Assembly (NCBI GenBank): GCA_964235815.1
Contig: CAXSCF010000001.1
Coordinates: forward strand, 26,313 to 90,312
Direction of reading: 5' to 3'
From: an uncultured Sphingomicrobium sp.
Lineage (GTDB): Bacteria > Pseudomonadota > Alphaproteobacteria > Sphingomonadales > Sphingomonadaceae
Length of the DNA stretch: 64,000 nt
The notes beneath the pieces were generated by a model. That model searched no databases and was not told the DNA's origin. It worked only from the letters and a program-made list of their open reading frames with translations. Of the stretch, positions 1,264 through 64,000 are shown in pieces (position 1 is the first letter of the stretch; the number at the start of each line of letters is the position of its first letter). Position numbers and translations under genes: made by a program.

Positions 1264-2976
1264 ATGCGCGGGTTTCGAATTGCCGCTGTGCCGGTGTTGC
1301 TGGCACTGTGCGCCATGCAGCGGGCGCCCGATCCCACGGTCGATTATGAGCTTTCACCCGAGATGAAGGGCGATGCGATCGTCGCGCTTGACGTCACGAT
1401 CCGGCTTCGTGCCGATAAATCGGGCAGCACTACGCTCGACTGGGTCGACAGCTGGGCCGGCGACCGCAAGCTTGGCCAATGGATGCGCGACCTGCGGATC
1501 GAGGGCGCCGCATCGGTCGCGCCCGCGCCTTTTGGCGGCCGCATCGTGCGTTCGGCGCCCGGCGTGCCCTTGGTGATGCGATATCGGATCGTGTCCGCGT
1601 TCGCAGCCGATCCGACCGTCAGCGACAGCGAGCAGGCGCATCCCGTCGTTCGTCCCGACTGGTTTTATGCGGTCGGCGAAGTCCTCTATGCCCGGCCGGT
1701 CGGGCGCGACCAGGCGCCGGCGCGCTTCACCTGGAAGGGACCAAAGGACATCGGGTTCGCGTCCGATACCGAACATGCCCGCGGTCTGCGCGATCGACCG
1801 CGTCAGGTCGGCGATATCATCGAGAGCATCGCGATCGGTGGTCGCGACTTGTCCGTCGCGCGTGTCACCATCAATGGCGCGCCCGTCCGCATCGCCCATA
1901 TCGGGCGCTTTGGCTTCGACATTGGCGCCTTCGACAAGACCGCCCAGCAGGTCGTTGCAGTCGAGCAGAAATTCTGGCGCGACACGAGGCCGGGGCCGTT
2001 CCTGATCACCGCGATCCCGCTCGTGCCGGAGCCCGGGCGGATCAGTTTTGGCGGCACCGGGCGCAGCGACGCCTTCGCCACGTGGATTGATCGCGACGCT
2101 GAATTGCCGAGCCTGACATGGCTCCTCGCGCACGAATATTTTCACAGCTGGAATTTCCGCCAGCTCGGCCGTTTTCCCGAGGAAAACGAAGCTGAAGCCT
2201 ATTGGCTGAGCGAAGGATTCACCGATTTTTACGCACGCCGGCTGATGCTTCGCGCGGGATTGTGGACGCCCCGGAAGTTCGTCGACGATTGGAACGAAAT
2301 GTTGCGCGCTTACGCCGCCTCATCGGTCCGGACATCTGGCAATGTCGAGGCTGCGGCGAAATTCTGGAGTGGCAATGCCGATGCAGAAAAAATGCCCTAT
2401 CAGCGCGGGGCGATGCTCGCTGCCTTGTGGGATCGAGAGCTTCGGGCGCGCGGCTCGCCGGGCCTCGACGCGGTGCTGCGTGCCCAGCGCGACCGAACGA
2501 GCGCCGCCAGCGCGGCTCCAGTCGTGACCACCGCCTTCATCGCCGAAATGGGCCGCGCCGGCCTCGACATTGCTCCCGATGTCGATCGCTATTTAACGAA
2601 GGGCGAGCCGCTAGTCCTTTCCGAAGAAACGTTCGGCGATTGCGCACGGCTGACAACCGCCGATGTCCCAATCTTCGACCGGGGGTGGAATTCGGAAGCC
2701 ACGGCGAAGGCGGGCAACGTCCTTGCCGGCGTCGATCCGGCATCGAACGCTTATGCCGCCGGCCTGCGTGACGGGATGAAGGTTTTGCGCCGATCGGGGG
2801 GCGAGCCCGGCAATTCGGCGGTCGATTATGTGCTCGAGGTGCAGGACGGCGCGACCAGGCGCAGCGTCACGTTCCGCCCCGCCGGCCGAAAAACCGTCCG
2901 AACGCAGCAAATTATCCTCGACTCGGCGCGCTTCGCGGCGGAGCCGGACAGGTGTGGGGCCGCGCTCGCCGGTTAG
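1264..2976 (+). CDS. M61-type (glycyl aminopeptidase-like) zinc metallopeptidase, probable lipoprotein or secreted
   Basis: 570-aa ORF with AGGGGA before the ATG. Contains the HEYFHSWN HExxH zinc motif in an M61-like context and an N-terminal signal with LLALC. Confidence 0.7.
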   Translation: MRGFRIAAVPVLLALCAMQRAPDPTVDYELSPEMKGDAIVALDVTIRLRADKSGSTTLDWVDSWAGDRKLGQWMRDLRIEGAASVAPAPFGGRIVRSAPGVPLVMRYRIVSAFAADPTVSDSEQAHPVVRPDWFYAVGEVLYARPVGRDQAPARFTWKGPKDIGFASDTEHARGLRDRPRQVGDIIESIAIGGRDLSVARVTINGAPVRIAHIGRFGFDIGAFDKTAQQVVAVEQKFWRDTRPGPFLITAIPLVPEPGRISFGGTGRSDAFATWIDRDAELPSLTWLLAHEYFHSWNFRQLGRFPEENEAEAYWLSEGFTDFYARRLMLRAGLWTPRKFVDDWNEMLRAYAASSVRTSGNVEAAAKFWSGNADAEKMPYQRGAMLAALWDRELRARGSPGLDAVLRAQRDRTSAASAAPVVTTAFIAEMGRAGLDIAPDVDRYLTKGEPLVLSEETFGDCARLTTADVPIFDRGWNSEATAKAGNVLAGVDPASNAYAAGLRDGMKVLRRSGGEPGNSAVDYVLEVQDGATRRSVTFRPAGRKTVRTQQIILDSARFAAEPDRCGAALAG

Positions 2977-53345: not shown

Positions 53346-54488
53346 CTAAGCGAGCGCTTTCTCGTACACCCGATACCGATGATTGATCACCGCGCCGGGC
53401 AATTCGGCGATCGACATCATCCCCTGATTGTCCTCGAGCACCCACCCGAACTCGCCCTGTTTGACGCCATAATTCTCGACACACGCGCGGCGGATATATT
53501 CGATCAATGTGTAGGCGATCTGCCCCCCAAGCCGAGTCCCGTGAAGTCGCTTGGTTACCCCCATCAGCGGGACGCGCACCCGGCTCACCTTGGGCTTGCG
53601 CAGGCGCCACAGCAATTTGACGAACCCGAAAGGGAACAGCTCACCGTCCAGATCGCGGATCATCTCGTTGATGTCGGGGATGGTCAGCATGAAGCCAACC
53701 GGCTCGCCGTCGAGCTCGGCGATCCGCACCAGGTCTTCGAAGATGATCGGCTTCAACTTCTTGCCGGCATAAGCGATTTCGGCGTCGGTCAAGGGCACGA
53801 ATCCCCAATTGTCCGACCAGGCATCGTTGAGCAGATTGAGGATGATTCCCGAATCGCGCGCAAACTTCGCCTTGTCGACGGTACGAATGCGGATCCGCGG
53901 ATTGCGCTCGGTCGCGGCGACCATGCGATTGATCAGCTCGGGCTGGTCCTTGGCGATGTCGAGGTCGTAGGTGACGAGGTCCTTGGCCTTGGCATAGCCC
54001 GCCGCCTCGATCCACGCCCGATAGGCCGGGCGATGATGCCCCATCATCGCCGTCGGGGGCTGGTCGAAGCCCTCGATCAGCAGCCCCGGCTCGTCCCAGA
54101 TCGAGATCGAGATCGGCCCCATCGCGGTGCTCATCCGTTGGTCGCGAAGCCATCCCTCGGCGGCCGCGATTAGGGCGGCTGCGGCCTCGGCGTCGAGCGC
54201 TTCGAACAGGCCCCATTGGCCAAGGCCCGTTTGCATGTATTCCTGCACCAGCGAGTCGACCTGGGCGCTGATCCGGCCGACGATGCGCCCGTCGCGCTCG
54301 GCAACGAACAGCGCCGCGCGGCCATGGCCGAACCACGGGTTCTTCTTGGGGTCGATCAGCCCGTGGACCTCGTCCTTGAGCGGGGGAACCCACATCGGGT
54401 CGTCCTTGTATACGTGCCAGGCAAAGTCGACGAAGGCGCGGCGCTCGGCTTTGGTCGTGACGGGGCGGATCGTAAGGCTGCGGTTCAT
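53346..54488 (-). CDS. GNAT-like acyltransferase family protein (380 aa)
   Basis: LTIRPVTTKAERRAFVDFAWHVYKDDPMWVPPLKDEV...LFVAERDGRIVGRISAQVD, a family usually annotated as N-acetyltransferase. The function is unproven. Confidence 0.6.
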   Translation of the reverse strand: MNRSLTIRPVTTKAERRAFVDFAWHVYKDDPMWVPPLKDEVHGLIDPKKNPWFGHGRAALFVAERDGRIVGRISAQVDSLVQEYMQTGLGQWGLFEALDAEAAAALIAAAEGWLRDQRMSTAMGPISISIWDEPGLLIEGFDQPPTAMMGHHRPAYRAWIEAAGYAKAKDLVTYDLDIAKDQPELINRMVAATERNPRIRIRTVDKAKFARDSGIILNLLNDAWSDNWGFVPLTDAEIAYAGKKLKPIIFEDLVRIAELDGEPVGFMLTIPDINEMIRDLDGELFPFGFVKLLWRLRKPKVSRVRVPLMGVTKRLHGTRLGGQIAYTLIEYIRRACVENYGVKQGEFGWVLEDNQGMMSIAELPGAVINHRYRVYEKALA

Positions 54489-54510
54489 GCGTCATGGGCT
54501 AGCGAGATAG

Positions 54511-55701
54511 GTGGCTCTTGTCACGCGCCGCGCGGCGCTCCCAAGAGCGCCATCGTCATGCCACAGTCGCACGGCAATCGGCCATTTCGCACAAGAGGTT
54601 ACGATCATTTTCGAAACGTCGACCACGCCCGCCGCTCCAGCCCCGGACACGGCTCCTGCGCCGCTCAAGGCGCAGTGCAACGACAAGGCGATGCTGCGCG
54701 CCGCGGCGGACGTGACGCGCGACCTCAACGTGCCCTCGGCGCGGACTTACTGGACCGACTTCCTCGCCTCGGCGGCGGTGGGCTATGCCGCGCTGGCGCT
54801 GGCCGCGATGACCCCTAGCGGGCTAGTCATGATCGTTGCCGGGCTAGTCAGCATCGTCGGCCTGTTCCGCGCCGGCAGCTTCATCCACGAACTGACCCAC
54901 ATCAAGAAGGGCGAACTGCGGGGCTTCAAGCTCGGCTGGAACCTCATCGCCGGGGTGCCGTTGCTGATCCCATCGTTCCTCTATGAAGGGATCCACAACC
55001 TTCACCATGCCAAGATCCGCTACGGCACGGTCGAAGATCCCGAATATCTTCCGCTCGCGCTGATGAAGCCGTGGACGCTGCCGGTGTTCCTGGTCGCCGC
55101 GACGCTGGCCCCGCTCGCCTTGATGTTCCGCTTTGCCGTGCTCGCGCCGCTGTCGCTGCTCGTCCCGCGCCTGCGCACTTTGGTCGTCGAACGTTATTCG
55201 GGACTCCAGATCAACCCCCACTTCCGCCGCAAGCCGGCCGAGGGCGAGTTGGCCCGCCAGTGGCGCTGGCAGGAAGCCGCGGCGAGCGTGTGGGCCATCA
55301 CCTTGATCGCGCTGGTCGCGACGGGGCTTGTCTCGCTCCACGTTTTTGCCGTGTTCCTGGCGATCACCGCCGGCACGATGCTGCTCAACCAGACGCGCAC
55401 GCTGGTCGCGCATTTGTGGGAAAATGACGGCGAGCCGCTGAGCGTGACCGAACAGTTCCTCGACAGCGTCAACGTCCCGCCGCCCGGCCCGATGGCCGAG
55501 TTCTGGGCGCCGGTGGGCTTGCGCTATCACGCGCTGCACCACCTCCTGCCGGGATTGCCCTATCACGCGCTGCCGACCGCGCATCGCCGGATCAAGGCTG
55601 CGCTGGCGTCCGATTCGGCCTACCACGGGGCCAATTATGGTGGGTTGTTGCCGCTTGTCAGACGGCTGGCGGCAGCGTCGTGGCGCGGACGACCCGCCTG
55701 A
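54511..55701 (+). CDS. Membrane fatty acid desaturase family protein
   Basis: Three His boxes: HELTH, HNLHH, HALHH. The listed start is a GTG only 22 nt from the divergent GNAT start; the ATG at 54691 is a plausible true start. Confidence 0.75.
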   Translation: MALVTRRAALPRAPSSCHSRTAIGHFAQEVTIIFETSTTPAAPAPDTAPAPLKAQCNDKAMLRAAADVTRDLNVPSARTYWTDFLASAAVGYAALALAAMTPSGLVMIVAGLVSIVGLFRAGSFIHELTHIKKGELRGFKLGWNLIAGVPLLIPSFLYEGIHNLHHAKIRYGTVEDPEYLPLALMKPWTLPVFLVAATLAPLALMFRFAVLAPLSLLVPRLRTLVVERYSGLQINPHFRRKPAEGELARQWRWQEAAASVWAITLIALVATGLVSLHVFAVFLAITAGTMLLNQTRTLVAHLWENDGEPLSVTEQFLDSVNVPPPGPMAEFWAPVGLRYHALHHLLPGLPYHALPTAHRRIKAALASDSAYHGANYGGLLPLVRRLAAASWRGRPA

Positions 55702-55704
55702 AGC

Positions 55705-56802
55705 TCATTCTTCCGAGCGGACCAGCACCATCTCGCCGATGAACAAAAACAGCAGGAACGGCGCCCACGCCGCCAGCAGCGGCGGATAGGCCCCGACATT
55801 GCCCAGCGCCAGGCTCAGGCTATCGACCAGGAAATAGGTGAAGCCCAGCGCCATTCCGATCGCGGCGCGGATCAGCACCTGACCCGATCGCGCCAGCCCG
55901 AACGCGGCCAGGCCGGCGAGCAACGGCATCAGCGTGATCGACAGGGGGCCACTGATCTTGTGCCACCATCCGCTGCGCGCCGTCGCCGACGGACGCCCCG
56001 CGCGATCGAGGTCGGTAATCGCCTGTTCGAGCGAGTTGAAGTCCTGGCTTGTGGCGTTGATTTTGGCGAGCGTGAAGCGCGTCGCTTCAACGCCGTTCAG
56101 CGTGTCGAGGATCGGCTGCTTGCGCACGACATTCATCGCGGTGTCGTACGTCCGTGCGTTAAACAATCGCCAACCGCCCGGTCGCTGGCGGGCAAGGGGC
56201 GCATCGATCAATCCTTCAAGCGCTCCGCCGCTGCGCTGATAGATGGTCACTCCCTCCAACCGCACCTTCGCGCCGCGCCCGGCGACCAGCCGGACGTGGA
56301 CCAATTGCTCGCCGTCGCGCGCCCAGACATTACTGAGCACTCCACTGTCGGGCGGGATCGGCTTGTAATCGGCACCCGTCCAGGCGTCGGCCGTGCGCGA
56401 GGCGCGGACCACCACCGTTTCGTTGAAGGCAAAGGCGATCAAGGCCACGGCGATACTGGCGAGGATCATCGGCGCGAGTATCTGGTGCGCCGACAGTCCC
56501 GCCGCCTTCATCGCCACCACTTCGCTATTCTGATTGAGACTGGTGAGGGCGATCAGCGTGCCGAGCAGTATCGCGAACGGCAGAAAGCGCGATGCGAGCA
56601 TCGGAACGCGCAACCCGACATAGCGCCACAGCTCGGGTTCGCCATTGCCGGGGACGGCAAGAATCTTGCCCGATTCGCCCAGCAGGTCGAGCGCCATCAG
56701 CACCATCACGAGCATGATCAGCACGGCGAAGCTACGGCTCGCGAACAGCCGCGCCATGTAGATCGCGATCCGCCGCGAAGGGAGGAAGTTGAAACCGGTC
56801 AT
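55705..56802 (-). CDS. lptG: LPS export ABC transporter permease LptG
   Basis: YjgP/YjgQ permease pattern (LPSRRIAIYMARLF...). The internal ATG overlaps the lptF stop (ATGA). Confidence 0.8.
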   Translation of the reverse strand: MTGFNFLPSRRIAIYMARLFASRSFAVLIMLVMVLMALDLLGESGKILAVPGNGEPELWRYVGLRVPMLASRFLPFAILLGTLIALTSLNQNSEVVAMKAAGLSAHQILAPMILASIAVALIAFAFNETVVVRASRTADAWTGADYKPIPPDSGVLSNVWARDGEQLVHVRLVAGRGAKVRLEGVTIYQRSGGALEGLIDAPLARQRPGGWRLFNARTYDTAMNVVRKQPILDTLNGVEATRFTLAKINATSQDFNSLEQAITDLDRAGRPSATARSGWWHKISGPLSITLMPLLAGLAAFGLARSGQVLIRAAIGMALGFTYFLVDSLSLALGNVGAYPPLLAAWAPFLLFLFIGEMVLVRSEE

Positions 56803-58040
56803 GCCACGGTTGCGCCGCGCAGCCGGCGGCGTGGACGCAGCTTGCCGATCCACTTGCCAAGCGTGGCAAAGGCGGCCTCGAGCGCGCCGATCGGTTGACC
56901 GCCGGGACGGTGGGCGATGACGTGGTACATCCAGCCGATCAAAGCGACGAAGGCAAGAAACGGCAACCACAGCGCCAGTTCAGGGATCAGGCGCCCCTGC
57001 GCGCCCGCGCTTTCGGCATATTGATTGATCTTGTGATAGGTCACGACCATCACGATCGCGATGAAGATGCCGAGCCCCGACGACGATCGCTTGGGTGGCA
57101 CCGCGAGCGCGATGGCAAGCAATGGCAGCATCAACATCATCACCACTTCGACCAGCCGGTAATGGAGGTTGGCGCGCGCCTCGAGATTATCATGCACGCT
57201 GACCCTGGCTGCGGCGGCACCATAAGCGCGTGAGCTGATCTCCATCAGGTTCAACTCCTCGCGATCGCTGCCGCGGCCGCGAAACGGGTCGATCGAGGGC
57301 AAGTTGATCGGCATGTCGTAGCTGTCGAAGGCCAACGTGCGCGGGGTAGTAAATTTGGGGCTGTCCTGCACTAACCGGCCTTTCTTGAGCCGAAAGATGA
57401 TCGTGTCGGGATCGCCGGTCGACAGGAACTGACCGCTTTGCGCGCTCGCCGCGATGCGCATCCCGTTCGTGTCTTCGAGCGCGGTGAAGATGCCGCCGAG
57501 ACTGGTGCCCTTCTTTTCGCTGCGATCGATCCTCAGCGTCATGTGCTTGCCCATGGTGTTGAACTCGCCGACCTTGATCGCCGCGCCGAGCGCGCCCGAA
57601 CGCAGGTCGAACCGCAACCCTTCGTAGCGGTAGCGCGAATAGGGCTCGATCCAGCCGACGATTGCGATGTTGAGCAGCAGCAAGCCGACGGCGAAGGCGT
57701 AGGGCACGCGCAGCAAGCGACCATAACCGATCCCGATGCCGCGCAGCGCGTCGAGCTCGGACGACAGCGCGAGCTTGCGAAAGGCGAGCAGGATGCCAAG
57801 CAGCAGCCCGATCGGGATGCCCAACGCGAAATATTCGGGGAGCAGATTTGCGAGCATCCGCCAGACCACGCTGACCGGCCCGCCGGCATCGATCACGAAA
57901 TCGAACAGGCGCACGATCTTGTCGAGCACCAGCAGCATCGCCGCCAGCAGAAGCGTTCCTAGCAACGGAACGGTGATGCTTCGCGCCAAATATCGGTCGA
58001 TCAGGGCAAGCCGTCCCACGTTTCGTCGTCCCTGCACCAT
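56799..58040 (-). CDS. lptF: LPS export ABC transporter permease LptF
   Basis: LIDRYLARSITVPLLGTLLL... YjgP/YjgQ family. I use the internal ATG at 58040, and a later GTG start is possible. Confidence 0.8.
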   Translation of the reverse strand: MVQGRRNVGRLALIDRYLARSITVPLLGTLLLAAMLLVLDKIVRLFDFVIDAGGPVSVVWRMLANLLPEYFALGIPIGLLLGILLAFRKLALSSELDALRGIGIGYGRLLRVPYAFAVGLLLLNIAIVGWIEPYSRYRYEGLRFDLRSGALGAAIKVGEFNTMGKHMTLRIDRSEKKGTSLGGIFTALEDTNGMRIAASAQSGQFLSTGDPDTIIFRLKKGRLVQDSPKFTTPRTLAFDSYDMPINLPSIDPFRGRGSDREELNLMEISSRAYGAAAARVSVHDNLEARANLHYRLVEVVMMLMLPLLAIALAVPPKRSSSGLGIFIAIVMVVTYHKINQYAESAGAQGRLIPELALWLPFLAFVALIGWMYHVIAHRPGGQPIGALEAAFATLGKWIGKLRPRRRLRGATVA

Positions 58041-58129
58041 GATTTGGCCGCAAACGGGCCCGACATACACTGTGACGGCGACTCCCGCAGAATGGGGGGC
58101 GGAGACACCGGAACTTCGGCTGTAGCAGA

Positions 58130-58651
58130 ATGGACATGGATTTCATGCGCAAATCTCGCTCTCCCCTGGCTTTCGGGGCCACGCTCGTCGCGCTCGGCCT
58201 TGCCCAGCCCGCGGCTGCGGTCATCGTCGGCGCGGACGCGGCCGTCTGTGCCGCGGGCAAGCCGGCCCTGCTTGTCCGCGTCGCCGGGCTGCAGCGGCCG
58301 ACTGGCTCGCTCAAATTGTCGGTCTATGGCAATAATCCGTCGGTCTATCTCAAGAAGGAGGGGCGCCTGCGCCGGATCAAGGTGCCGGTCAGCAGCCGCG
58401 GCCCGATCGACGTTTGTATCGCAGTGCCCGGTGCGGGTCGCTACGCCGTCGCGGTCCATCACGACCTCAACGGCAATGGCGACAAGGATCGCCACGACGG
58501 TGGCGGCTATTCGAACAACCCGCGCGTTTCGTTGATGAACATGCGGCCTGCCTTTGCGCGGACGGCAGTGTCCGTCGGCCGTTCGCCGACCCGCACCGAA
58601 GTCCACTTGCTCTATGTCCACGGCCTGTCGGTGGGGCCTGCGCAAAGCTGA
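58130..58651 (+). CDS. DUF2141 domain secreted protein
   Basis: Signal peptide (MRKSRSPLAFGATLVALGLAQPAAA). The HHDLNGNGDKD motif is typical of DUF2141. Confidence 0.65.
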   Translation: MDMDFMRKSRSPLAFGATLVALGLAQPAAAVIVGADAAVCAAGKPALLVRVAGLQRPTGSLKLSVYGNNPSVYLKKEGRLRRIKVPVSSRGPIDVCIAVPGAGRYAVAVHHDLNGNGDKDRHDGGGYSNNPRVSLMNMRPAFARTAVSVGRSPTRTEVHLLYVHGLSVGPAQS

Positions 58652-59625
58652 TGAAGCGACCGAGGATCGCCTTGCTGTCGAACCCCAAGTCGACCGGAAA
58701 TATCGCCCAGCTGCCGCGGATTCGCGCCTTTTGCGCCGATCACATCGATATTTTCCATTATGAGGTCGAGCGCGCTAACCAGATCGGCGAAGCGATGGCG
58801 ACGATCGCCCGCGTCCAGCCCAAATTGCTGGTCATCAACGGCGGCGACGGCACTGTCCAGGCGGCGCTGACCGAGCTCTACAATGGCGGTCACTTCGGCG
58901 CCTCGCCGCCCCCCGTCGCGGTACTGCCAAGCGGCAAGACCAACCTCATCGCGCTTGATCTGGGCGCCGGGGGAGATCCGGTGGTGGCGCTTGGGCGACT
59001 GCTCGAACTCGCCCAGAGCGACCTTGCCCCGCACATTGTCCCGCGCGAACTGATCGCGCTGTCGGGCGGAATGGACGGGATCAAGCCGGTCATTGGCATG
59101 TTCCTCGGCGGAGCTGGCCTTGCCGACATCATGCTTTACTGCCGCAACCGAATTTACCCGCTCGGATTGCCCAATTCGATCAGCCATATCATTACCGCAA
59201 TCGCCGTCGTGCTGGGTCAGGTGTTTCGCATGCGCGCCAGCTTCCTTCCGCCCGAGCCGGCGCACCTCAGCGTCTCCTTGCGCCGGGAGGGAGCGATGCG
59301 AGGCCGTTTCTCGTTGCTGTTTGTCACGACCCTCGAAAAAGTCCTGCTGTCGAGTGACGTCGGCTCACACCACAGCGGCTCGCTCAAGTTCGTCGCGGTT
59401 GAGCAGCGGTCGGGGTCGTTGCTGCGCGCCTTTGGAGCAAGCCTTTTCGGACGCCTCGGCAAAACCAAGATGGCGGGCGTTCACGTCGAGGAAGCCGATG
59501 AAATCTCGATCGAGGGCGAAGGCAGCGACGTGATCCTCGACGGTGAAACGTTCCGCGCGGGTATCGGCAAGCCCATCCTGCTTCGCTCGGCGCTGCCACT
59601 GTCGTTCGTGCGCCTCGCCGCCTGA
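58651..59625 (+). CDS. Diacylglycerol-kinase-fold lipid kinase (YegS/BmrU-like)
   Basis: LLVINGGDGTVQ and LPSGKTNLIA catalytic-domain motifs. The start overlaps the DUF2141 stop (TGATG). Confidence 0.7.
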   Translation: MKRPRIALLSNPKSTGNIAQLPRIRAFCADHIDIFHYEVERANQIGEAMATIARVQPKLLVINGGDGTVQAALTELYNGGHFGASPPPVAVLPSGKTNLIALDLGAGGDPVVALGRLLELAQSDLAPHIVPRELIALSGGMDGIKPVIGMFLGGAGLADIMLYCRNRIYPLGLPNSISHIITAIAVVLGQVFRMRASFLPPEPAHLSVSLRREGAMRGRFSLLFVTTLEKVLLSSDVGSHHSGSLKFVAVEQRSGSLLRAFGASLFGRLGKTKMAGVHVEEADEISIEGEGSDVILDGETFRAGIGKPILLRSALPLSFVRLAA

Positions 59626-59627
59626 CG

Positions 59628-60488
59628 ATGACGACGATCGAGGCGCTCGTCGCCGATGAACTGGCACAACCGGTCGATCCACGCGTCGCGGCGATGGCCA
59701 GGGCGGTGGCGGCGCGGCACGGCGCGGCGAGCCGCGCGGTGCTGTTCTACGGATCCTGCCTGCGGGAACGGCAACTCGACGGGTTGATGCTCGATTTCTA
59801 TTTGATCGTGTCGGACTATCGCAGCGCCTATGACAAGCCGTGGCTGGCGCGCGCCAATGCGCTGATCCCGCCCAATGTCTTTCCTTTCGAGCACGCCGGT
59901 CTGGCTGCCAAATATGCCGTCCTCAGCGAAGCCGACTTTGCGCGCCTCAATCGGCCGGAAACGCGCAACGTGTCGGTGTGGGCGCGCTTCGCCCAGCCGT
60001 CGCGACTGGTGTGGGCCGCCGACGACAAGGCGCGCCATGCAACCGTGGCCTCGGTCGCGCGCGCCGCGCCGACCCTGCTCGCCGCGGCCGGGCGGATCGC
60101 GGGGGAAGCGCCGCTCGACTGGTGGCGGCGGGCCTTTTCGCTTACCTATTCGGCCGAGCTTCGCGCCGAACGCAAGACCCGCGCCGGATCGGTCGTCGAT
60201 CAGGACCGCGCCCGCTACGAACGCTTTTCGCAAGCTGCCATCGCCGCCATTTGCCCCACTGCCTCGAGCGGGGGTTGGGGGCGCCGGCGGATCGAGGGCA
60301 AATTGCTATCGGTTGTGCGTCTCGCCAAAGCCAGCGCGACCTACGCCGGGGGCGCCGAGTACATCGTGTGGAAGATCAATCGCCACGCCGGGACCGATTT
60401 CGTGCTTAAGCCGTGGCAGCGGCGCCATCCCTTGCTCGGCGCGCTCAGCCTGTTGCCGCGGCTCCTGAAATCGGGTGCGATCCGCTAG
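59628..60488 (+). CDS. Tam41/Mmp37-like nucleotidyltransferase-fold protein (tentative)
   Basis: VLFYGSCLRE..LDFYLIVSDY...NVFPFEHAGLAAKYAVLSEADFARL...WARFAQPSRLV is colinear with my memory of the Tam41 motifs (GYGSGV, DLILVV, YFNPF..IKYGVV, LYLAGRLQKPV). It starts 2 nt after the kinase stop. Confidence 0.45.
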   Translation: MTTIEALVADELAQPVDPRVAAMARAVAARHGAASRAVLFYGSCLRERQLDGLMLDFYLIVSDYRSAYDKPWLARANALIPPNVFPFEHAGLAAKYAVLSEADFARLNRPETRNVSVWARFAQPSRLVWAADDKARHATVASVARAAPTLLAAAGRIAGEAPLDWWRRAFSLTYSAELRAERKTRAGSVVDQDRARYERFSQAAIAAICPTASSGGWGRRRIEGKLLSVVRLAKASATYAGGAEYIVWKINRHAGTDFVLKPWQRRHPLLGALSLLPRLLKSGAIR

Positions 60489-62427
60489 ATCCGCGCGCCA
60501 AGGCCCCGGCCACCGAGGATGCCAGCGCGGCGACCGTGAAGGGCTTGCGGAGCAGTTCATGCCCGACCAGATCGTCGCTGTCGCCATCCCCGACGAAGCC
60601 GGTAACGAACAGGACCGCGATGTCGGGGCGCCGGGCCCGCAACTCCCGGATCAGCTCCGGTCCGGTCATTTCGGGCATGATCACGTCGGACACGACGAGC
60701 TCGAAATCGGCTGCGGCGAACAACCGCATCGCTTCCGCCCCGCTGGAGCAGCTGACCGGGTCATAGCCCAGATCCTCAAGCGCTCCGACGGTCGCGGTCC
60801 GCACGCGCGGATCATCCTCGACCAGCAGGATCCGCGCTCCGGGAACGGTGATGTCGGCTTCCTGGCGCTGCGCTGCAGGATGCAGGCGGACGTTGGTCGC
60901 GGCTTCGGCGGTGCGCGGCAGATAGATTGATACGGTCGTGCCCTTGCCCGGACGACTGTCGATCCCGACCTCGCCCCCTGACTGGTGCGCGAAGCCGAAG
61001 ATCTGGCTCAGCCCCAGCCCGGTGCCCTTGCCGACGGCCTTGGTGGTAAAGAAAGGCTCGAACGCGCGGTCGATAACTTCCCGACTCATTCCGCAACCGC
61101 TGTCGCTTACCGAAATGCGAAGATAATCGCCCGGCTGAATGTCCCCGACGGCGTTGGCGGTGACCGTCTCGTTGGCGGTCGAGATTGTCAATTCACCCTC
61201 GCCATCCATCGCGTCACGGCCATTGACCGCAAGGTTGAGAATGGCATTCTCGAGCTGGTGCATGTCAACGAATACCGGCCATGCGGCAGGGTCGAGCACG
61301 GTGCGCACTTCGACCCGCTCGCCCAGCGTTCGGTCGAGCAACTCGCTCATGCCGCCGACCAGTTGCGCGCTGTCGACGCATTCGGGAAGCAGGGGCTCGG
61401 ACCGCGCGAAGGACAGTAAGCGGCGGGTCAGCGCCGCGGCGCGCGTGGCGCCTTCCATCGCGTTGGTGAGGTGGATCATCACTTCGCTGCGCGGGCCGTT
61501 GAGCCGCCGCCGGGCGAGATCGATCCCGCCGACGACCACGGCCAGCATATTGTTGAAGTCGTGCGCGATGCCCCCGGTCAACTGGCCAACGGCTTCCATC
61601 TTCTGAACCTGGCGCAGCTGGGCTTCGGCGGCGTGGCGTTCGACCGCTTCGGCCTTTAGCGCAAGGTTGGCGTCGCTCAGTTCGCGGGTGCGATCGGCGA
61701 CCGCCTGCTCAAGCACCTGCGAGCGTTCGGCTTCGCTGTCCGCCTCGCGCCGCGCGATCGCGTTGAGGCGCAGGGCCTGGACCGCGACCGCGCCGAGAAA
61801 CACCGCCATCGCCCCGACGATCACCCCCAGCCAGCTTAGATAATCGCTCAATTTATCGGCGCGAGCGGCAAAGAAACGAGTCCGCTGCATTCGCTCGTTG
61901 AGAACCAGTCGCTCGCCTTCGGCAATATCGCTCAGGACACGCCGCACTGCGGGCCCGGTCGGCGACTGCGCCGCGGCGTAATAATAGCCCGTGCCTCCGG
62001 CGCCGCGCCCGGCGACCGTGGCTCGCGCGGCGAGCGCAAATTCTTCGCCACGCTGGCGATACAATTGTTGCAGTCGGATCAGCCGATCGCTTTGCGACGG
62101 CTCGTCGTGAAGCAATTTGCCCAGATCGAAGATTTGCTGCCCGGCTAGGCGCCACTGCGAATAATAGATGTTGCCACTGGTCTTGACCTGCTCGTCAAGC
62201 ACGAACCGCCCGAGCGCGGCTTCGGCCCGCGACACGCTGGCATCGAGCGAGCGGGTCAGCAAGGTCACTTCATAAGCGTGGCGCTCGCCATCGAGCGCTT
62301 CGTCGCGGGCATCGTTCGATGCCGCCACCAGGAACACCATGCCGAGCAAAATAAGCGCGGCAAGCAGCGCCCCGGCGGCCGCCCCGCCACCGCGCCAGTC
62401 AAAGCGCCGATCTTCCCCTGCGGTCAT
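60445..62427 (-). CDS. Hybrid sensor histidine kinase/response regulator with a CHASE3-like sensor region
   Basis: Two TM segments flank a ~170-aa sensor, followed by a coiled coil, the H-box GGIAHDFNNML, an HATPase domain (GTGLGLS) and a C-terminal receiver (ILLVEDD...). Confidence 0.85.
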   Translation of the reverse strand: MTAGEDRRFDWRGGGAAAGALLAALILLGMVFLVAASNDARDEALDGERHAYEVTLLTRSLDASVSRAEAALGRFVLDEQVKTSGNIYYSQWRLAGQQIFDLGKLLHDEPSQSDRLIRLQQLYRQRGEEFALAARATVAGRGAGGTGYYYAAAQSPTGPAVRRVLSDIAEGERLVLNERMQRTRFFAARADKLSDYLSWLGVIVGAMAVFLGAVAVQALRLNAIARREADSEAERSQVLEQAVADRTRELSDANLALKAEAVERHAAEAQLRQVQKMEAVGQLTGGIAHDFNNMLAVVVGGIDLARRRLNGPRSEVMIHLTNAMEGATRAAALTRRLLSFARSEPLLPECVDSAQLVGGMSELLDRTLGERVEVRTVLDPAAWPVFVDMHQLENAILNLAVNGRDAMDGEGELTISTANETVTANAVGDIQPGDYLRISVSDSGCGMSREVIDRAFEPFFTTKAVGKGTGLGLSQIFGFAHQSGGEVGIDSRPGKGTTVSIYLPRTAEAATNVRLHPAAQRQEADITVPGARILLVEDDPRVRTATVGALEDLGYDPVSCSSGAEAMRLFAAADFELVVSDVIMPEMTGPELIRELRARRPDIAVLFVTGFVGDGDSDDLVGHELLRKPFTVAALASSVAGALARGSSGSHPISGAAATG

Positions 62428-62445
62428 GGCTCGTGTCTAGTCCCC

Positions 62446-63708
62446 TCACCCGGCGAGCGAAACCCCGTTCGTCGAAGGGATGCAGCCGGTCGCGCGACCC
62501 GCCGCCTCGAACATCGTCAGAATCTGGCGGACCTGCTCGGCATCGTGCTCGGCACAGAGCGAGCAACGCAGCAGGGTCATGTTGCCCGGTGTCGCCGGCG
62601 GCCGCGCCAAGTTCACGTACAATCCCTCCTGAAGCAGCGCTTCCCACATCGCCGCCCCGGTCTCGAGGTCGGGCACGAGCACCGCGATGATCGCCGATTG
62701 CGGGGTCTCGGTGCCGAGCGTGAAGCCGAGCGCCTTCAGTCCGCGATGAAGCGTCTTGCTATTTTCCCACAGATGCGCGCGCTTGTCCGCGCCGTCCATC
62801 AGCTTGCGGATCGAGGTCGCCGCGGTCGCCACGACCGACGGCGGCAGCGAGGCGGTGAACACGTACGGCCGGCACACCAGCCGCAAAATCTCGAACTTGG
62901 GATGGTTCGAGACGCAGAAACCGCCGACCGTCCCGACCGACTTCGAAAAAGTGCCGATGATGAAGTCGACGTCGTCGATCACCCCCTGCGCCTCGGCCAC
63001 GCCGCGGCCATGCTCGCCGATGAAGCCCATCGAATGCGCCTCGTCGACCAGCACCATCGCCCCCGCCGCCTTGGCCACCGCGACCATTTCCTTCAACGGC
63101 GCGATGTCGCCGAGCATCGAATAGACTCCCTCGAGGATGACCAAAGTCTTGGCGCCTTCGGGAATGCGCTTGAGGCGCTTCTCGAGCGCGTCGATGTCAT
63201 TGTGGCGGAACGGCACGATATTGGCATTGCCGAGCGCGCAGCCGTCGTAGATCGAGGCGTGGCTGTCGATGTCGAGGACGATATAATCGTCCTTGCCGGC
63301 GATGGTCGAGATGATCCCGAGGTTGGCCTGATAGCCGGTCGAGAAGACCATCGCATGGTCCATGTCGTAGAACGTCTTGAGCGCTTCCTCGCACGCTTTG
63401 TGCCCGGCGTAGGTGCCATTGAGCACGCGGCTCCCCGTCGTTCCCGCGCCATAGTCGTCGAGCGCCTGCTTGCCCGCCGCGATGACCTCGGGGTCGAAGG
63501 TCATGCCCATGTAATTGTAGGTGCCGAGCAGGATCGTCCGCTGCCCGTTGCAGATCGCCACGGTCGGGCTTTCGACGCGCTCCATGACGAGGTTAAAGGG
63601 GTCGGTCAGCCCGGTCGATAGCAGGCTCTCGCGCTGCGCGATAAGGCCGTCGAACTTGGAGAAAAGATCCCCGCCCGCCACTTCGCCGGGGGCGCCGCCG
63701 TCGGTCAT
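62446..63708 (-). CDS. spt: Serine palmitoyltransferase
   Basis: 420 aa from the internal ATG. LLGTYNYMGMTFDP...FSTGY.ANLGIIST..GK..Y..LD.DSHASIYDGC...VLEGVYSMLGDIAPLKEMVAVAK..GAMVLVDEAHSMGF..GTFSKSVGTVGGF is nearly colinear with the Sphingomonas paucimobilis SPT as I remember it. Confidence 0.9.
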   Translation of the reverse strand: MTDGGAPGEVAGGDLFSKFDGLIAQRESLLSTGLTDPFNLVMERVESPTVAICNGQRTILLGTYNYMGMTFDPEVIAAGKQALDDYGAGTTGSRVLNGTYAGHKACEEALKTFYDMDHAMVFSTGYQANLGIISTIAGKDDYIVLDIDSHASIYDGCALGNANIVPFRHNDIDALEKRLKRIPEGAKTLVILEGVYSMLGDIAPLKEMVAVAKAAGAMVLVDEAHSMGFIGEHGRGVAEAQGVIDDVDFIIGTFSKSVGTVGGFCVSNHPKFEILRLVCRPYVFTASLPPSVVATAATSIRKLMDGADKRAHLWENSKTLHRGLKALGFTLGTETPQSAIIAVLVPDLETGAAMWEALLQEGLYVNLARPPATPGNMTLLRCSLCAEHDAEQVRQILTMFEAAGRATGCIPSTNGVSLAG

Positions 63709-63725
63709 GGCCAGTCCGGGGTCGG

Positions 63726-63968
63726 TCACGCCGTCATCTTCTCGACCGCGTCGACCAACTGTCCGACCGTCTCGATCTCGGCTTGCTGGTTCATGGTGAT
63801 CAGGATGTCGAACTCGTCCTCGATCGTGGCGACGAAATCGAGCACGGTCAGGCTGTCCCACTCAAGGTCCTGGGCAAAGCGCGTGTCGTCGCCGACGTCG
63901 ACGCCGTTCTTGTTGAACGGTTCGATGAGGGCTTTCACTCGGTCGTCGGTGGCGGCGCGTGTGGTCAT
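63726..63968 (-). CDS. Acyl carrier protein (sphingolipid-associated)
   Basis: 80 aa with the phosphopantetheine site LEWDSLTVLDF, ending 17 nt upstream of spt. The first ATG is at 63968; the listed ORF starts at a TTG at 63974. Confidence 0.8.
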   Translation of the reverse strand: MTTRAATDDRVKALIEPFNKNGVDVGDDTRFAQDLEWDSLTVLDFVATIEDEFDILITMNQQAEIETVGQLVDAVEKMTA

Positions 63969-64000
63969 CGGCAAGTCCTAATCTGGGGGCATCGCATAAG

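Follow-up and report, generated by a model that had tools for sequence, protein, structure and literature searches.

Sphingomonads build their outer membrane with sphingolipids. The subject of this study is a gene for a hybrid sensor histidine kinase with a CHASE3 sensor domain that lies directly downstream of spt, the gene of serine palmitoyltransferase and the committed gene of sphingolipid synthesis, in 64,000 nucleotides of DNA from an uncultured Sphingomicrobium sp. (contig CAXSCF010000001.1, positions 26,313 to 90,312; this whole stretch is called the window below). The enzymes that make ceramide in bacteria became known only in recent work (PMC9386255, PMC9393093). In its available text, the first of these papers gives the acpR-spt operon as known from alpha-, beta- and gamma-proteobacteria, with the acyl-ACP synthetase of the Sphingomonadaceae located elsewhere (Padilla-Gomez et al. 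2022, PMC9386255). In Caulobacter, cpgA-cpgB-cpgC (CCNA_01217-01219) lies beside spt (CCNA_01220) and makes ceramide phosphoglycerate; CpgB is sphingosine-kinase-like, CpgC has no conserved domains and is given as present only in Caulobacterales and Sphingomonadales, and the regulator discussed in the available text is Fur (Zik et al. 2022, PMC9393093).

The present locus resembles the acpR-spt operon in having acp directly 5' of spt on one strand, and differs from it, as far as the available text describes that operon, in the hybrid kinase gene that follows spt here and in 26 other sampled genomes. The words "kinase", "sensor" and "two-component" are absent from the main text of PMC9386255, whose figures or supplements may draw an unlabelled kinase. 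Like the Caulobacter cluster in the published account, it has a DUF2141 gene, a DAGK-fold lipid kinase gene and a domain-less 286-aa open reading frame (ORF) near spt, whereas the Caulobacter cpg genes are numbered directly beside spt and here the kinase gene lies between (PMC9393093). Among described kinases, RsbK of B. cereus shares with the window's protein an N-terminal CHASE3 domain, a signalling helix before the core, a C-terminal receiver and the lack of an Hpt domain; going by the available text on RsbK, it alone has HAMP and GAF domains, the methyltransferase partner RsbM and an adjacent PP2C response regulator, none of which is seen here, and it differs in phylum and in output, which is sigma B (PMC4574943). 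For residues ~222-643 the best family matches are CckA-type relay kinases (NF046020, NF046026, PRK13557), with which an AHDFNN H-box is held in common; unlike CckA, the kinase has a CHASE3 sensor, and only core and receiver align. The sensor domain of Rhodopseudomonas palustris HK9 (3VA9) is the sole structure matched by the sensor profile and the top Foldseek match.

In the PMC papers and bioRxiv preprints searched, we found no report of a sensor or two-component system tied to spt and no paper in which CHASE3 occurs together with sphingolipid, and histidine kinases go unmentioned in the top-ranked literature on serine palmitoyltransferase, sphingolipid and Sphingomonas. A first-pass annotation of this DNA had been aware of no described regulator of bacterial spt, and the literature searched agrees. 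The association of a kinase with the committed gene of sphingolipid synthesis is notable and apparently undescribed, and it makes the kinase a candidate regulator of the sphingolipid outer membrane, the first such candidate for bacterial sphingolipid synthesis.

Linkage of the kinase gene to spt

The kinase belongs to a real, family-specific orthologue group whose gene is kept directly downstream of spt wherever it is present. In the window, as read from the sequence, acp, spt and the kinase gene are arranged head to tail on the minus strand:

63726..63968, minus strand: acp, AcpR-like specialised acyl carrier protein, 80 aa (PP-binding, 38 bits, Pfam)
62446..63708, minus strand: spt, serine palmitoyltransferase (NF047603, 791 bits; Aminotran_1_2, 179 bits)
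62428..62445, minus strand: spt-kinase gap, 18 nt, read directly, no terminator-like site
60445..62427, minus strand: hybrid sensor histidine kinase, 660 aa (ORF, Pfam, NCBIfam, orthologue alignment)

At 791 bits, the spt product clears the cut-off (670) of NF047603, the NCBIfam equivalog of the alpha-proteobacterial serine palmitoyltransferase. NCBIfam models of acyl carrier proteins match the acp product, but at scores below their cut-offs. The gene stands directly 5' of an alpha-proteobacterial spt on the same strand, which is the arrangement that defines an acpR-spt unit, and an acp match 5' of spt is likewise present in 59 of the 60 kinase-less loci that were fetched. Between the spt stop codon (TGA, 62448..62446, minus strand) and the kinase ATG (62427..62425, minus strand), an intrinsic terminator scan of 59800..64000 detected no terminator-like site; its four sites, no more than shuffled sequence led us to expect (2.9 +/- 1.9), all fall within coding sequence. 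The earlier observation of an 18-nt gap after spt, free of a visible terminator, is thus correct.

Conservation of the linkage, which the first-pass annotation had proposed as a check, was assessed in 120 other genomes of the same family, drawn from 112 genera, with the sensor part (residues 1-260) as query. The sensor domain was found in 27 of these genomes, about a quarter of the sampled genera, and in 26 of the 27 the next gene upstream, on the same strand, is spt; the linkage is indeed conserved in relatives. Identities between the kinases of these holders are 40-62%. One match, L028 (E 4e-6), was rejected as an orthologue and is taken as a paralogue because its kinase alignment begins only at residue 199 and no spt is adjacent; apart from this weak, paralogue-level match, none of the 120 family genomes has a copy of the kinase away from spt. 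Outside the family, the sensor domain was detected in none of 200 genomes of the class at E <= 1e-8, a sample in which the inclusion of Caulobacter is uncertain. The opposite flank has proved less durable than the kinase-spt pairing: the CpgB-like gene that flanks the kinase on its other side here stays within ~4 kb of it in 14 of the 26 holders, 8 have such a gene at another place in the genome, and none was found in the remaining 4.

The spt gene itself is far more widespread, being present in 116 of the 120 family genomes, 90 of which have no adjacent kinase. The comparison of spt-downstream genes covered 60 of these 90 genomes, for which the loci were fetched; one of the 60 (L035) stops at a contig end directly after spt. 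The gene 3' of spt in the kinase-less loci varies, and includes transporters, OsmC, PilZ and beta-lactamase-fold proteins, regulators and others. In L074 the slot after spt is occupied by a 604-aa hybrid kinase with a divergent N-terminus. In L030 (1868-2224, plus strand) and L056 (~1915-2214, plus strand) the kinase is absent and a receiver-only gene stands right after spt, beginning in L030 14 nt past the spt match. The best match of these two receivers in the window's genome is the receiver of the kinase (42-43% identity, against at most 38% for others), and judged by this similarity the receiver-only gene may be a remnant of the kinase or a minimal version of it.

On a quick, unrooted and weakly supported gene tree of SPT, kinase holders are spread across both halves, and one large crown group is without any. 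Because of this spread, the pattern looks like an old spt-kinase linkage with repeated loss. A pattern scan of genome contigs with the kinase alignment returned 79 loci from many phyla, mostly unrelated paralogues because the patterns were derived from the catalytic core; only L090, from a metagenome-assembled genome of Sphingomonas sp., covered residues 30-643. An apparent spt-kinase fusion in G026 (a 1273-aa open frame) was rejected, since spt has a stop codon there and the kinase lies in a different frame.

Transcription of the kinase gene

The sigma-70 promoter of a leaderless gene combines a -35 element with a TANNNT -10 hexamer, which follows after about 17 nt and ends 5-9 nt before the start codon. 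A pair spaced in this way, although its hexamer is without the final T, lies across the end of spt and the gap:

62457..62462, minus strand: -35-like TTTCGC, within the final codons of spt, separated by 17 nt from the -10-like hexamer
62434..62439, minus strand: -10-like TAGACA, 6 nt before the kinase ATG; predicted promoter (positional counts in 27 genera)

The spt-kinase gaps of the orthologues measure 18-185 nt (median 57, with the first ATG after the spt stop taken as the start) and are unalignable apart from a shared positional signal. A TA dinucleotide, belonging to a TAG-type motif, starts at -17..-10 of the kinase ATG in 19 of 27 genera; averaged over every 8-nt window of the 90 nt that precede this ATG, the count is 5.5 of 27. 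The local consensus at this site is GGCTAGNCT, with a TAGNCT-like hexamer whose position 6 is T in 12 of the 19 loci anchored in this way. Exactly 23 nt upstream of the TA, which corresponds to a 17-nt spacer, TT is found in 13 of the 19; at other offsets the count is 0-4 of 19, except at the neighbouring offset, where TTT runs raise it to 9 of 19. Shine-Dalgarno (SD)-like motifs are rare at the kinase start (4 of 27 genera). Kinase-less genomes of the same family served as controls: their acp starts show an SD-like motif in 38 of 59 cases and an occupied TA window in 23 of 59, and for their spt starts both counts are 6 of 46.

Since a precisely spaced pair of -35-like and -10-like elements is conserved across genera, the kinase probably has its own promoter, overlapping the 3' end of spt and the gap, and its mRNA is predicted to be leaderless or nearly so. 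By the rule of the terminator scan, just one of the 27 orthologous gaps holds a hairpin followed by a T-run; the other 26 are without a terminator-like site, which makes read-through from spt plausible, and co-transcription with acp-spt is possible in addition. A search for RNA data sets that contain this DNA found none, and two soil sequencing runs with a 0.06 share of its words yielded short contigs of relatives (90-95% likeness), none of which spans the spt-kinase junction (bin 62333..62450); these contigs have no bearing on expression. The kinase is thus linked to spt yet probably not simply its third cistron. The first-pass annotation had placed it as the third gene of the acp-spt transcription unit, and the physical part of that claim stands (same strand, 18 nt, no terminator), whereas a separate promoter in the gap or the spt 3' end, which it had counted among refuting results, is predicted there from the positionally conserved arrangement of TTTCGC, 17 nt, TAGACA, 6 nt, ATG. 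Given this predicted promoter, operon predictions that merge acp, spt and kinase may be wrong, and a polar mutation in spt may leave the kinase expressed.

A strict version of the bipartite motif has 32 matches in the window's own genome, 5 of them with an ATG 4-9 nt downstream and 3 of those 5 with an ORF of at least 60 aa; no regulon emerged from this own-genome search, and no second copy was found in the sphingolipid cluster.

Several further features of these starts and gaps were noted. The geometry of the kinase start recurs at acp (TTGCTT, 17 nt, TAGGAC, 6 nt, ATG; 63969..64000 and beyond), and no SD-like motif is visible in the 12 nt before its ATG; from this layout, acp may be leaderless too in this genome. 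In the gaps of L018, L020 and L021, TTAACCAT or a near variant stands about 9-10 nt 5' of the -10-like motif, and variants are also present in the gaps of L022, L023 and L007; we presume a resemblance of TTAACCAT to the CtrA half-site of alpha-proteobacteria. The L020 gap (178 nt) is enlarged by an insertion with long G/C-rich inverted repeats of the CCCTCTCCC ... GGGAGAGGG type, which looks like a small repeated palindromic element. L026 has the sole orthologous gap with a terminator-like hairpin and T-run, 6 nt past the spt stop, and it combines the longest gap (185 nt) with the shortest kinase (632 aa, by the first-ATG rule).

The kinase and its possible phosphorelay partners

Judged by its domains, the protein is a CHASE3 hybrid histidine kinase, as had been annotated, and an ordinary kind of protein. 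All of its features lie on the minus strand:

62320..62379, minus strand: predicted transmembrane helix 1, residues ~17-36 (hydrophobic stretch; within one long helix of the model)
61885..62283, minus strand: CHASE3 domain, predicted to be periplasmic, residues 49-181 (Pfam, 3VA9 profile match, model)
61771..61839, minus strand: predicted transmembrane helix 2, residues ~197-219 (hydrophobic stretch and model; runs into a coiled-coil linker)
61396..61587, minus strand: HisKA/DHp domain with phospho-acceptor His289 (codon 61563..61561) and AHDFNNML box (Pfam, alignment)
60910..61260, minus strand: HATPase_c catalytic domain (69 bits)
60532..60831, minus strand: C-terminal receiver domain with Asp581 (codon 60687..60685; 60.5 bits)

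In Pfam, HATPase_c (69 bits, cut-off 26.4) and Response_reg (60.5 bits, cut-off 30.2) are clear matches. HisKA reaches 20.6 bits in the window's kinase, under its cut-off of 26.9, and matches 27 of 27 orthologues. CHASE3 (PF05227) scores 18.6 bits (E 0.0018), under the cut-off of 28; it matches all 27 orthologues at E <= 0.01, the best at 1.2e-14, by which the window's copy appears to be a low scorer within a genuine CHASE3 group. The Pfam scan of the kinase found no HAMP, PAS, GAF or Hpt domain. In an alignment of 27 orthologues, one per genome, His289 and the AHDFNNML box are invariant, as are the receiver residues E537, D538, D581 and K628 (27 of 27 in each case) and the glycines of the ATP lid. 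This conservation makes both phospho-acceptor sites appear functional.

A profile of the sensor part matches a single solved structure, 3VA9 (E 1.4e-6, positions 35-175). Modelled by AlphaFold with the alignment as input, residues 12-262 come out as all helical at a confident pLDDT of 90.7, and the first and last helices of this model continue through both hydrophobic segments. A Foldseek search of this model against the PDB places 3VA9 at the top (E 4e-3, TM 0.33/0.65, 20% identity), followed by four-helix-bundle sensor domains of chemoreceptors and kinases; with no match at E <= 0.001, this search lends weak support. From the hydrophobic stretches and the model, we infer that the CHASE3 domain is extracytoplasmic, between two transmembrane helices.

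The host genome encodes four paralogous hybrid kinases with 41-45% identity to the kinase over core and receiver, and these match the kinase core equally well. Identity with CckA was considered and rejected, the NF046020 and NF046026 scores being 355 and 278 bits against cut-offs of 1000.

No response-regulator gene is found near the kinase among the ORFs of 53346..60488 and of 4.2 kb beyond acp, in agreement with the lack of an adjacent DNA-binding response regulator noted earlier; the nearest other receiver-domain match on the contig is at C1:25584-25973, just before the window start. Candidates for a phosphotransfer step are encoded elsewhere in the host genome: a stand-alone Hpt of ~125 aa after der (G000:C81:3543-3917, here the C81 Hpt), an Hpt-like ORF beside a single receiver at C111, and a ChpT-type HPTransfase gene. 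A C81-type Hpt is present in 46 of the 120 family genomes and, among the 87 genomes with loci, in 26 of 28 kinase holders (the divergent L074 counted) versus 12 of 59 others. We treat this co-occurrence as a lead and not as evidence of co-evolution. For the relay to a partner encoded elsewhere that had been suggested for the kinase, the stand-alone Hpt genes are candidates; the co-occurrence is not significant after correction for kinship. In one genome (G086; L017:1-276), the gene of a C81-type Hpt is convergent to the kinase gene and ends ~25 nt from its stop, the sole Hpt-kinase adjacency among the Hpt-positive kinase holders.

Proposed mechanism, rival readings and the surrounding gene cluster

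We give about even odds (a probability near 0.5) to the reading in which this is a family-specific CHASE3 hybrid kinase that is linked to spt, has its own promoter, signals through an Hpt relay and has the sphingolipid outer membrane as its output. The protein would be laid out, from its N-terminus, as a transmembrane helix, a periplasmic CHASE3 four-helix bundle, a second transmembrane helix, a coiled coil, the DHp domain with His289, the ATPase domain and the receiver with Asp581. The periplasmic domain would sense an envelope or external cue, and the kinase, to judge from its intact and invariant motifs, would autophosphorylate on His289 and hand the phosphoryl group to its own Asp581. Because the kinase is without an Hpt domain, the signal is proposed to leave through a separate Hpt to a response regulator encoded elsewhere, and co-occurrence would make the C81 Hpt the best candidate. 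Gene order suggests that the output could be the sphingolipid outer membrane, through acp-spt, the cpgABC-like head-group genes or transport, and it is best read as pointing to a possible role in the homeostasis of sphingolipids or of the outer membrane. Transcription of the kinase would start at its own conserved promoter, and read-through from acp-spt may add to it. A stronger form, which we consider rather unlikely, would make the system a dedicated sphingolipid homeostasis relay, in which CHASE3 reads the (glyco)sphingolipid leaflet or an intermediate and an Hpt with a distant regulator tunes acp-spt, the cpgABC-like genes and an LptF/G-type exporter. If the relay reading is true, this would be the first signalling system found to control bacterial sphingolipid synthesis, and if the kinase controls sphingolipid output at all, it would raise the question of the means by which bacteria gauge and adjust an outer leaflet made of sphingolipids. 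The lipid-status sensing put forward in the first-pass annotation was a deduction only, and about three quarters of the sampled genera keep spt without the kinase.

A number of observations weigh against the reading of an spt-linked kinase with its own promoter and an Hpt relay. The 90 of 116 spt-carrying family genomes without an adjacent kinase imply that the kinase is dispensable for sphingolipid synthesis as such, and it has often been lost, with 11 label changes on the SPT tree (a quick tree with weak support). As to the promoter, the window's own hexamer, TAGACA, is without the final T, and a sigma-70 scan of 59800..64000 returned no promoter-like site; moreover, the motif was recognised after viewing the sequences and the tested windows were chosen post hoc, and an unbiased expectation-maximisation (EM) search of the 45 nt before the ATG gave a scattered GCTTT-type, -35-like motif and not TAG. 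As to the relay, the Hpt co-occurrence is confounded by kinship: in the only five independent pairs on the SPT tree it is not significant (median p 0.25), with 3.4 pairs in the same direction, 0.1 in the opposite direction and 1.6 showing no difference. Four other hybrid kinases in the host genome could use the C81 Hpt as well, and the co-occurrence of the kinase with CpgB is weaker still than that with the Hpt (5 independent pairs, median p 1).

The simplest alternative dispenses with a promoter of the kinase's own and makes it a plain third cistron of an acp-spt-kinase mRNA, its level tracking sphingolipid synthesis. In its favour, spt and the kinase gene share one strand here, with an 18-nt gap and no terminator-like site, and the picture extends to the orthologues, whose gaps are short throughout (median 57 nt) and hold such a site in just 1 of 27; the empty sigma-70 scan fits as well. 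We nonetheless hold this to be quite improbable, for a -35/-10-like pair of precise and conserved spacing stops 6 nt short of the ATG, and the SD-like motif that an internal cistron usually needs is present in only 4 of 27. The spt start is itself mostly without SD (6 of 46) but lies -8 to +11 nt from the acp stop in most of the loci listed, whereas kinase gaps of 31-185 nt are unfit for translational coupling. A promoter of its own would in turn suit the view that the adjacency is inherited gene order with no functional tie, the kinase regulating something unrelated to sphingolipids, and so would the free variation of the genes downstream of spt in kinase-less genomes and the 90 of 116 spt carriers without the kinase beside spt. 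Chance retention of this kind appears to us rather unlikely when 26 of 26 clear orthologues adjoin spt despite kinase identities of 40-62%, when the opposite flank is rearranged in at least 12 of 26, when no copy lies away from spt (L028 being only a weak, paralogue-level match), and when two kinase-less genomes keep in the slot a receiver-only gene closest to the kinase's receiver. If the kinase does not control sphingolipids, the synteny around it is unusually stubborn.

A third alternative bears on the Hpt-relay step of the mechanism only. By analogy with RsbK, the receiver might be an intramolecular inhibitory or phosphate-sink domain, and the kinase would then phosphorylate an orphan regulator directly. 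RsbK offers a precedent, being a CHASE3 hybrid kinase without an Hpt domain in which deletion of the receiver gives constitutive output, as the available text reports (PMC4574943), and both the lack of significance of the Hpt co-occurrence after kinship correction and the two of 28 kinase holders without a C81-type Hpt at E <= 1e-8 are consistent with such a scheme. However, stand-alone Hpt genes exist here, where the authors of the RsbK study, in its available text, found none in B. cereus (PMC4574943); 26 of 28 holders carry the Hpt, one of them right beside the kinase; and the core and receiver are most like those of CckA-type relay kinases, at scores far under the cut-offs. This alternative is tentative and, on balance, less than probable.

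The kinase gene is itself part of a sphingolipid gene cluster, with spt at one end of it and the cpg-like genes at the other. Outside the window, 5' of acp, are an epimerase/dehydratase-family gene, which sits where the "epi" reductase does in the available text of PMC9386255, and then obg. On the other side, convergent to the kinase gene, are the DUF2141 gene, the DAGK_cat (CpgB-like) lipid-kinase gene and the 286-aa ORF:

59628..60488, plus strand: CpgC-like ORF, 286 aa, no Pfam match; convergent, after the DAGK_cat and DUF2141 genes

The kinase gene and this ORF share 44 nt at their 3' ends (60445..60488); neither 3' tail is conserved in relatives, and there is no terminator-like site between the two genes. 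Beyond the trio that ends with the CpgC-like ORF come two LptF/LptG-family genes, a fatty-acid-desaturase-family gene and a 380-aa ORF. The LptF/LptG-family permease pair (55705..58070, minus strand; 215 and 200 bits) lies between the cpg-like and desaturase-family genes, and in the kinase-less L032 and L081 such a pair is found directly 3' of spt; these permeases may export sphingolipids rather than lipopolysaccharide (LPS). Finally, within 53346..54511, the 380-aa ORF and the desaturase-family gene start divergently from a common 22-nt gap, which holds CTATCTCGCTAGCCC directly before an ATG, another -10-like motif near a start codon.

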